Below, piece after piece: positions 12,132 to 12,563 of a stretch of 32,000 nt of DNA. Position 1 is the first letter of the stretch; every line of letters begins with the position of its first letter. A program made the position numbers and the translations under genes. This DNA is from Halogeometricum borinquense DSM 11551. GTDB lineage: Archaea > Halobacteriota > Halobacteria > Halobacteriales > Haloferacaceae. The notes beneath the pieces were generated by a model. That model was not told the origin of the DNA and did not search any database. It saw only the letters and a program-made list of their open reading frames with translations. The DNA lies in assembly GCF_000172995.2 (NCBI RefSeq), contig NC_014729.1, forward strand, positions 1,500,001 through 1,532,000, written 5' to 3'.

Positions 12132-12563
12132 ATGGTGAAGAGTACCCGTCACGCGAAATACGAACTCTACTACCACATAGTGTTCGTGCCGAAATCTGGC
12201 GGAATCGAAGATTCCGCTGACCTCGCGGAACAGGGTTCCGCTCAGTATCGGCGTTCGCACCTGACGGGGAAGACGAAGGAACGTCTCGAAACCATCTTCG
12301 CGGAAATCTGTGAGGACAAGGGCCTCGAACTGGCCGAGTCCGAGGTCATGCCCGACCACGTACACCTGTTCATTGGGAGTCCACCCAAGAACGCCCCGTC
12401 ACTCATCGTCAACTGGGTCAAGGGCATCTCCGCCCGCAAGTACAACCAGCGGTACGATGACCGCGTGAAGTGGACTCGTTCGTACTACGTCGGGACGGCG
12501 GGGAGCGCCTCGAAGGGCGCTGTCGAACAGTACATCGCTGAACAGGAGGGTGGCGACGAATGA
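12132..12563 (+). CDS. tnpA: IS200/IS605 Y1 (HUH) transposase TnpA carrying a 17-aa in-frame insertion
   Basis: YHIVFVPK...YRR motif, HUH motif (PDHVHLF), catalytic Tyr region (RSYYVGTAG). Stop overlaps the tnpB start (ATGA at 12560-12563). Confidence 0.9.
12199..12241 (+). repeat. twin-hairpin module 1, inside tnpA
   Basis: GCGGAATC-GAA-GATTCCGC (12199-12217), a 7-nt spacer, then GCGGAAC-AGG-GTTCCGC (12225-12241). All stem pairs are perfect; checked base by base. Confidence 0.85.

Follow-up and report, generated by a model that had tools for sequence, protein, structure and literature searches.

The gene tnpA of ISHbo5, an insertion sequence (IS) of the IS200/IS605 family, is located at positions 12132..12563 of a 32,000-nt stretch of the Halogeometricum borinquense DSM 11551 genome (NC_014729.1, positions 1,500,001 to 1,532,000), hereafter called the window. 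At 12195..12245, the gene contains 51 nt, here termed module B, that form two adjacent hairpins in an open reading frame. These 51 nt are probably a copy of a miniature, non-autonomous palindromic mobile module that is specialised on IS200/IS605 elements and that inserted into tnpA. An earlier note, made from the sequence alone, had suggested that a small palindromic element landed, or was selected, within the transposase gene; the three checks that it proposed, namely a comparison with homologues, a genome search and a structural model, all support this suggestion. What the earlier note lacked is that four such modules occur in one IS, that they are specialised on the IS200/IS605 family, and that a published analogue exists in the small mobile repeats (SMR; PMC3119063).

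The sequence at 12195-12245 is TCTGGCGGAATCGAAGATTCCGCTGACCTCGCGGAACAGGGTTCCGCTCAG; it is in frame, contains no stop codon and encodes 17 residues located between P20-K21 and Y39-R40-R41 of a 143-aa open reading frame (ORF). The module and all the ISHbo5 features described below are on the plus strand. Module B comprises two perfect hairpins, GCGGAATC-GAA-GATTCCGC (12199-12217) and GCGGAAC-AGG-GTTCCGC (12225-12241), both with 3-nt loops and separated by the spacer TGACCTC, and it is bounded by short inverted ends (CTGGCGG...CCGCTCAG). Sequence, frame and hairpin scan thus confirm the in-frame, stop-free, twin-hairpin insertion between PK and YRR that had been described before. The junction is ambiguous by 1 nt at most, and there is no target duplication at module B or at module D (see below). 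The DNA fold of module B has an energy of -19.9 kcal/mol (z = -3.8), and none of 200 shuffled sequences folded as well. A scan of the 32-kb window for perfect hairpins with stems of at least 7 and loops of 3-6 returned 28 rows corresponding to about 20 distinct sites, 7 of which are within the four modules of the ISHbo5 copy. The triloops are often of the C-GAA-G, C-GCA-G or C-GTA-G type on one or the other strand; triloops of these three types are very stable mini-hairpins in single-stranded DNA.

With its 17-aa insert, the product of tnpA has 143 aa; Pfam PF01797 (Y1_Tnp) and PDB homologues identify it as a Y1 (HUH) transposase. The Pfam match (E = 6e-33) starts only at residue 38. Our homologue search recovered two groups of proteins: 143-aa TnpAs with the segment, and many 126-aa TnpAs in which PK is directly followed by YRR and which are 91-98% identical elsewhere. 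The insert-free form is the majority among the homologues, and the nearest TnpA homologues lack the 17 aa. The segment is also absent from the solved TnpA structures 2EC2, 2F4F, 2XM3, 2A6M and 2VJV. Residue-level structure alignments were made with the two best of them, 2EC2 and 2F4F, and the 2F4F alignment leaves a clean 17-residue gap between PK and [Y/H]RR. The HUH motif (H76-V-H78) is intact and aligns to the solved TnpAs, and so is the catalytic tyrosine, Y134 in EQYIAEQ, which aligns to KKYIEEQ of 2EC2; homologue and structure alignments thus bear out the claim that both catalytic motifs persist downstream of the insertion. An AlphaFold2 model, computed from a 32-sequence alignment, has a mean pLDDT of 71.5 with a well-modelled Y1 core. 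The insert residues 23-39, with pLDDT below 50, form a loop between strand β1 (12-20) and helix α1 (47-62). The model therefore places the 17 residues in a predicted disordered loop after β1, away from the HUH motif and the tyrosine.

Exact protein matches identified the host as Halogeometricum borinquense DSM 11551 and the element as the one named ISHbo5. Based on the alignment to two insert-free sister copies (L001 and L002; L numbers denote loci), the copy in the window spans 2045 nt (11949..13993), and it contains tnpA and tnpB. L001 and L002, which we used as references, are about 94% identical to it, encode a 126-aa TnpA and a 424-aa TnpB, and lack exactly the 51 nt of module B. The element ends were set from the sister copies, with TTAC directly preceding GGAAAAT... 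at the left and with ...GGATGTCAA at the right; outside these limits, the flanks of the sister copies are unrelated. ISHbo5 has the characteristics of an IS200/IS605 element, namely a Y1 transposase with the HUH motif and the catalytic tyrosine, subterminal palindromes, no inverted terminal repeats, insertion 3′ of a fixed tetranucleotide, and no target duplication. In the window copy (11945-11967), the left flank is CTGC rather than the TTAC target of the sister copies, and the first 19 nt of the left end contain 5 mismatches to them. As judged from these letters, the left end may be degenerate.

The ISHbo5 copy consists of a backbone of about 1835 nt plus 210 nt contributed by four twin-hairpin modules, each with a different sequence, as revealed by the DNA alignment to L001 and L002, from which modules A, C and D are also absent. 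Module A (51 nt, 11983..12033) is in the non-coding left end, where it interrupts the subterminal palindrome; its boundaries are uncertain by about 2 nt, and its hairpins are ACCAGAACGC-TAA-GCGTTCTGGT and CAGAC-GTA-GTCTG. The remaining two are in frame within tnpB (12560..13942), whose product, a 460-aa RNA-guided nuclease with Pfam OrfB_IS605 and Cas12f1-like TNB domains, has 424 aa in the insert-free copies. Module C (54 nt, 13119..13172) has the hairpins GGAAAATC-GAA-GATTTTCC and CGAAAACGC-TTC-GCGTTTTCG, and a direct repeat, ATTCAC, flanks it and leaves 6 nt of ambiguity at its boundary. Module D (54 nt, 13330..13383) has the hairpins CCGAGAGAC-GCA-GTCTCTCGG and CGGAAGAC-TTC-GTCTTCCG. All three recur elsewhere: A in L057, L062, L071, L078 and L022, with an A-like form in L010, L032 and L035; C in L021, L025, L057, L071 and L078; and D in L007, L025, L038, L062, L079 and others.

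The module content varies among IS copies that are at least about 90% identical and are found in other genomes and plasmids. No module is present in L001 and L002; L007 (Haloferax gibbonsii) has D only, nine loci have B only, L038 has B and D, L022 has A and B, L062 has A, B and D, L021 has A, B and C, and the window copy and L071 have all four. Additionally, L057 and L078 (Halopenitus), which stand outside this backbone comparison, carry A to D according to local BLAST. Backbone similarity does not predict module content, given that the nearest relative of L071, with all four modules, is L039, with B only. All four modules are thus insertions, and they assort independently among sister copies. 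The loaded IS has also continued to transpose. L057 and L078, both from Halopenitus malekzadehii, are 100% identical throughout the approximately 2 kb of IS with modules A to D, and their flanks differ directly after the TTAC target; a third copy in this species, L071, is located at another contig end. Since L057 and L078 are identical in different surroundings, the IS laden with A to D must have transposed recently, by itself or in trans. The module lengths found (51, 51, 54, 54 and 60 nt) are all multiples of three, and type B modules are open in five of the six reading frames.

Some further inserts were observed in related elements. L094 (451-891, TnpA P0031) contains the 60-nt module, an in-frame twin hairpin (CCGAATCGC-TGT-GCGATTCGG and ATCAGAACTGC-TCG-GCAGTTCTGAT) that encodes VPESLCDSVCQSELLGSSDD near the C-terminus of a TnpA of the 126-aa type; with it, the insertion sites in the IS family number five. 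A PATE-like IS derivative of about 270 nt, L010 (301-570, Actinarchaeum halophilum plasmid NZ_CP071308.1), has only the left and right ends, the left one carrying an A-like module (ACCAGAACTGC-AGA-GCAGTTCTGGT ... CCAGAC-GTA-GTCTGG) and the right one having another hairpin, CCAGAAC-TTC-GTTCTGG, in its palindrome loop. At L006 (the TnpA P0017 locus, 76% identity), hairpin-bearing inserts are present at IS reference positions 32 and 1713, one of 46 nt in the left end (GTTCCGAC-GCCA-GTCGGAAC) and one of 47 nt near the tnpB 3′ end; at this degree of divergence, the alignment is less reliable. In L095 (2501-2917, TnpA P0034), a 36-nt in-frame insertion (HRTFAREIRTC) follows YY of TnpA; we rejected it as a member of the family, as it has no twin hairpin and resembles a local duplication of neighbouring sequence.

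To describe the spread of module B, we scanned one genome per prokaryotic species with its conserved core, GACNTCGCGGANCNNNGNTCCGCTCAG. There were 83 exact matches, 81 of which were in Halobacteria; in viral contigs, the core pattern had no match. Outside haloarchaea, there were only two matches, L016 (Actinoplanes) and L053 (Gemmatimonadota); as neither has the first hairpin or the family ends, they are probably chance matches in GC-rich genomes. The matches occur in four contexts. About 48 are in tnpA, in three TnpA lineages; about 25 are in four-hairpin arrays at unrelated intergenic sites; six are reversed in orientation and fall in the N-terminal part of another TnpB family; and others, with a long first hairpin, are in non-coding DNA. 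Module B has thus dispersed to several contexts, and the proposed genome search, which had asked about other Halobacteria, finds the motif there in two tnpB families and in the loops of non-coding PATE palindromes, among other places. In tnpA, B is at the same site between PK and YR in all three lineages, its length is exactly 51 nt in 50 of 50 copies, and each lineage contains both subtypes of the module, which are defined by the spacer TGACCTC or GGACATC. Protein similarity led to loci L003 to L006, so that the DNA pattern introduces no bias in them. Between L003 and the window, B is 96% identical, compared with 64% of nucleotides and 56% of amino acids in the flanks, and the first hairpin is identical in 24 of 24 positions, which points to B having spread horizontally to this one site. 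In 691 kb of fetched haloarchaeal DNA, 92 twin perfect hairpins were located in 112 kb of IS605-like regions and 55 elsewhere; nearly all of the latter are in PATE arrays or IS ends, and about two look unrelated.

The four-hairpin arrays have the form GTGAACCGCCTCGGGGTCAAG, array, CCCCGAGGCACTC...CTGTAGA. When read on the other strand, they are 52-bp terminal-only PATEs of the HqIRS46/ISNph7 type. In this setting, the PATE palindrome loop holds a D-type module with a B-type module nested inside it, 105 nt in total. The 51-nt B-type module is likewise nested in the spacer of a D-type module in L059, a tnpB of Natrialba hulunbeirensis, and in L004. The D type occurs in PATE arrays and, additionally, in the loop of the right-end palindrome of ISNph12, for which a 54-nt block inside the terminal palindrome can be read from Table S9 of Dyall-Smith et al. 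2011 (PMC3119063). In that right end, CCTCGGGG[TCGTACGGAAGACGGAGTCTTCCGTGATGACGAGAGACGAAGTCCCTCGAACCA]CTTGACCCCGAGGCGGTTCAC, the 54 nt in brackets are a D-type twin hairpin in reverse complement.

The hairpins of module B covary. Across 38 distinct B 51-mers and 16 base pairs, 96.7% of the cells are paired, and in 7 of the 16 pairs both partners have changed, in 61 cells. In 500 shuffles, the observed values were never reached, and sliding the partner by 1-3 columns reduced pairing to 26-48%. The variants of the first stem, GCGGAATC/GATTCCGC, GCGGGACC/GGTCCCGC and GCAGAACC/GGTTCTGC, are compensated within the hairpin; the second stem has the variant GCGGACC/GGTCCGC. The loops vary and can even flip, from GAA to TTC in L009. 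With the stem variants, the encoded peptide shifts from IEDS to TDGP or TDGS. Given that the pair changes are compensatory while the peptide drifts, selection has acted on the hairpins and not on the protein. The segment is thus not conserved at the protein level, and neither of the outcomes that the earlier note would have counted against an insertion, an equivalent 17-aa segment in all homologues or one lacking hairpin-forming DNA in the nearest homologues, was found. Regarding the strand that forms the structure, both G·T and A·C intermediates are present in stem 1, in small numbers. We also considered a nested long-hairpin fold in which the left arm of stem 1 pairs with the right arm of stem 2, as in the minimum-energy RNA structure, and we rejected it: it has no covariation support, since the changes in stem 1 are compensated within stem 1 and stem 2 remains constant. 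In an Rfam search, no family covered the modules.

According to the explanation that we prefer, twin-hairpin modules of 51-60 nt (types A to D here) are all but confined to IS200/IS605 elements and the PATEs derived from them, where they occupy subterminal palindrome loops, tnpA and tnpB and nest in one another. They would move as single-stranded hairpin DNA; a Y1/HUH transposase (IS200-type) would probably mobilise them in trans, with the single-stranded intermediates of the host elements as its substrate. Their recurrence at the PK and YR codons would reflect target specificity for a sequence that protein conservation holds constant. Within genes, the modules would be read through as hydrophilic loop insertions; because their lengths are multiples of three, B is open in five of six frames and they are read through, the IS would stay functional and carry them along.

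Several points weigh against this explanation. We observed no transposition event of a module and identified no dedicated transposase. Recognition by ISHbo5 TnpA finds no support in the sequence, since the module stems are unlike the IS palindromes (CCTCG[T/C]GC-TTTA-GCGCGGGG). No constant tetranucleotide precedes B at its 5′ side (GAAA, GAAG, GGAA, GTCA and others), in contrast to targeting of the IS608 type. The D sites are alike, GTCGAA^ACTCCTCGAGG in tnpB and GTCAAG^ACCCCGAGG in the PATE loop, but we do not count this likeness as evidence, because by our estimate a chance match is expected somewhere in a 1.8-kb element. The conservation of B among the loci derived from the scan is inflated, as the scan fixes 21 of the 51 positions. 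Finally, the orientation of B is the same in 50 of 50 tnpA copies, which also fits a single origin followed by recombination or gene conversion between tnpA genes that reside together.

None of the rival explanations, taken here from the most to the least probable, accounts for the whole pattern. It is unlikely that the module is primarily a cis-regulatory nucleic-acid structure, selected by the IS, that throttles translation, stabilises the transcript or binds TnpA and thereby tunes transposition. Such a role would agree with the strong covariation, with the constant length and orientation over 50 copies, with the success of the module-bearing IS copies and with the C-GAA-G and C-GCA-G triloops, which are very stable DNA mini-hairpins. 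Nevertheless, presence of the module is polymorphic among copies that are about 94% identical and insert-free homologues are the majority; a selfish module is the better fit, given also that the same module is found in PATE loops, which are non-coding, and in either orientation in tnpB. A regulatory role could be a secondary effect.

We consider it improbable that B was inserted a single time and then passed between divergent tnpA genes of the polyploid haloarchaea, through short-patch gene conversion or through recombination, without being independently mobile at this site. Different TnpA lineages do share one genome, as in Haloarchaeobius (L031/L058 and L066), B has one and the same orientation and phase in all 50 copies, and the 20 nt upstream of B (CACATAGTGT..CCGAAR) are well conserved. 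Downstream, however, the homology extends over no more than about 5 nt (TAYCG), each of the TnpA lineages has both B subtypes, and B-type modules are present at sites without tnpA homology.

Much less probable is that the 17 residues are an ancestral or lineage-specific surface loop of TnpA, repeatedly lost by precise deletion, with the hairpin-forming DNA being incidental. The identical site and length in three TnpA lineages would be expected of such a loop, but the segment is missing from solved structures and from the Pfam profile positions, B is 96% identical between lineages in which the flanks are 64% identical, the compensatory stem changes alter residues, and modules homologous to B are found outside tnpA. 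An archaeal bulge-helix-bulge (BHB) mini-intron, cut from the tnpA mRNA by the tRNA splicing endonuclease, is hardly credible: the flanks can pair (GCCGA/UCGGC) and bring both junctions together, but the insert is always a multiple of three and stop-free, which an excised intron does not need, the same modules are in non-coding DNA, and in the predicted folds of DNA and RNA both junctions fall within a single internal loop of 3 x 2 nt instead of two 3-nt bulges staggered by a 4-bp helix.

Among known systems, the closest published kind to the mobile modules proposed here, when compared by description, is the SMR (HqIRS42/43/55) of Haloquadratum walsbyi (Dyall-Smith et al. 2011, PLoS One 6:e20968; PMC3119063). 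These repeats have about 103-122 bp, inverted termini and no target duplication, preferentially enter IS605-type transposons and PATEs within near-terminal palindromes, and were reported with a mobilisation called "enigmatic" (PMC3119063). It was thus already known that repeats of about 110 bp attack IS605-type elements in Haloquadratum, mostly outside ORFs (PMC3119063). The modules are likewise short and transposase-free, have inverted termini (CTGGCGG/CCGCTCAG in B) and lack target duplication, with C being ambiguous because of its 6-nt flanking repeat. They share the preference for IS605-type elements and PATEs, including near-terminal palindromes, as illustrated by A, which splits the left-end palindrome, and in both systems the same position can carry an element in either orientation. 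In contrast to the approximately 103-122 bp of the SMR, for which the reported events are mostly outside the transposase ORF, the modules have 51-54 nt (60 nt in L094), consist of two triloop hairpins, are multiples of three, are in frame in tnpA and tnpB and are found in many genera of Halobacteria. The nested D and B array, with 105 nt, is close to an SMR in length. In the literature, we found no description of in-frame 51-54-nt twin-hairpin modules in haloarchaeal tnpA or tnpB, of their nesting or of their covariation.

PATEs, including the 52-bp terminal-only PATEs from IS605-type transposons (PMC3119063), are also tiny, hairpin-bearing and linked to IS200/IS605 elements, with no inverted terminal repeats or target duplication, and are possibly mobilised by TnpA. 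However, PATEs keep the IS termini, a 4-5-nt target (TTAC or TCTAC) and a palindrome of the IS type, whereas module B has no 5′ flank of the TTAC/TCTAC type, no ...GTTCAC or ...GATGTCAA end, and stems unlike the IS palindromes. PATEs are hosts of the modules and not modules themselves.

Bacterial REP/REPIN sequences, associated with RAYT Y1/HUH transposases, resemble the modules as short palindrome doublets with hairpin-keeping covariation, for which an IS200-like Y1 transposase acting on single-stranded DNA has been proposed as mobiliser. They differ in being extragenic, in having a GTAG or CGTC head and in being tied to a single-copy RAYT gene, whereas module B is intragenic and has neither head. 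The Rickettsia palindromic elements (RPE) are a further parallel, as selfish palindromes that are in frame in protein genes and are translated as extra surface segments; nevertheless, RPEs are bacterial, have 100-150 bp and occur in host genes generally, whereas the modules hit transposon genes and transposon ends. Classical MITEs differ from module B, which lacks a target duplication and for which there is no parent IS with the same termini. The very small dispersed repeats (SDR) of cyanobacteria, of about 20-30 nt, reportedly nest inside the hairpins of other mobile elements (Elhai et al. 2008); they are unlike the modules in size, sequence and hosts.

The picture that emerges is that of a parasite of a parasite, with tiny elements on IS200/IS605 across many haloarchaeal genera that rewrite two coding sequences, those of the transposase and of TnpB (the ancestor of Cas12), yet do not kill them. 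The modules explain the heterogeneity of annotated lengths, which are 126, 143 or 146 aa for TnpA and 424, 442 or 460 aa for TnpB, and the ISHbo5 copy of Halogeometricum borinquense DSM 11551, from the element's namesake species, is itself a composite. The mobilisation of SMR-type elements, enigmatic since 2011, becomes testable with a 51-nt substrate, defined hairpins and the cultivable genera Halogeometricum, Haloferax and Natrialba. The insertion sites also mark positions at which TnpA and TnpB have 17-18-residue insertions in intact frames, which is of interest for protein engineering. A more far-reaching idea, which we put forward tentatively and regard as doubtful, is that twin-hairpin modules form a class of their own among hyperparasitic transposons, ultra-small at 51-60 nt, always multiples of three and mostly stop-free, and that they home into IS200/IS605 elements, with a conserved codon pair of tnpA among their targets, use the single-stranded-DNA hairpin chemistry of Y1 transposases and persist as harmless translated loops. 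If so, they would be among the smallest mobile DNAs known and might modulate the activity of TnpA and TnpB.

The right end of ISHbo5 contains the subterminal palindrome CCTCGCGC-TTTA-GCGCGGGG (13964..13983), located from its sequence and from the alignment to L001 and L002. It is the type of hairpin that ISHbo5 TnpA should recognise, and its sequence is unlike the module stems. The region 13787..14006, which comprises the tnpB 3′ end and the IS right end and is outside the modules, has two weak Rfam matches, HgcC with 26 bits (E = 0.002) and sot0042 with 22 bits, neither of which reaches its gathering score; we presume that it is the omega-RNA region of TnpB.

At the borders of the element, the last approximately 27 codons of a 508-aa ORF (window 10504-12030) with a Thr-rich tail (TTETTATTTEATDSTATRITDSTAT...) are within the IS left end, and a 114-aa minus-strand ORF (13818-14162) extends into the right end. 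ISHbo5 may have truncated one or both of these flanking genes. Elsewhere in the window, two adjacent perfect hairpins with 5-nt loops, GCCGCGA-CTCGC-TCGCGGC and CACGGCGG-CGACC-CCGCCGTG, are located at 21208-21257, within the tryptophan-tRNA ligase gene (20358-21527).

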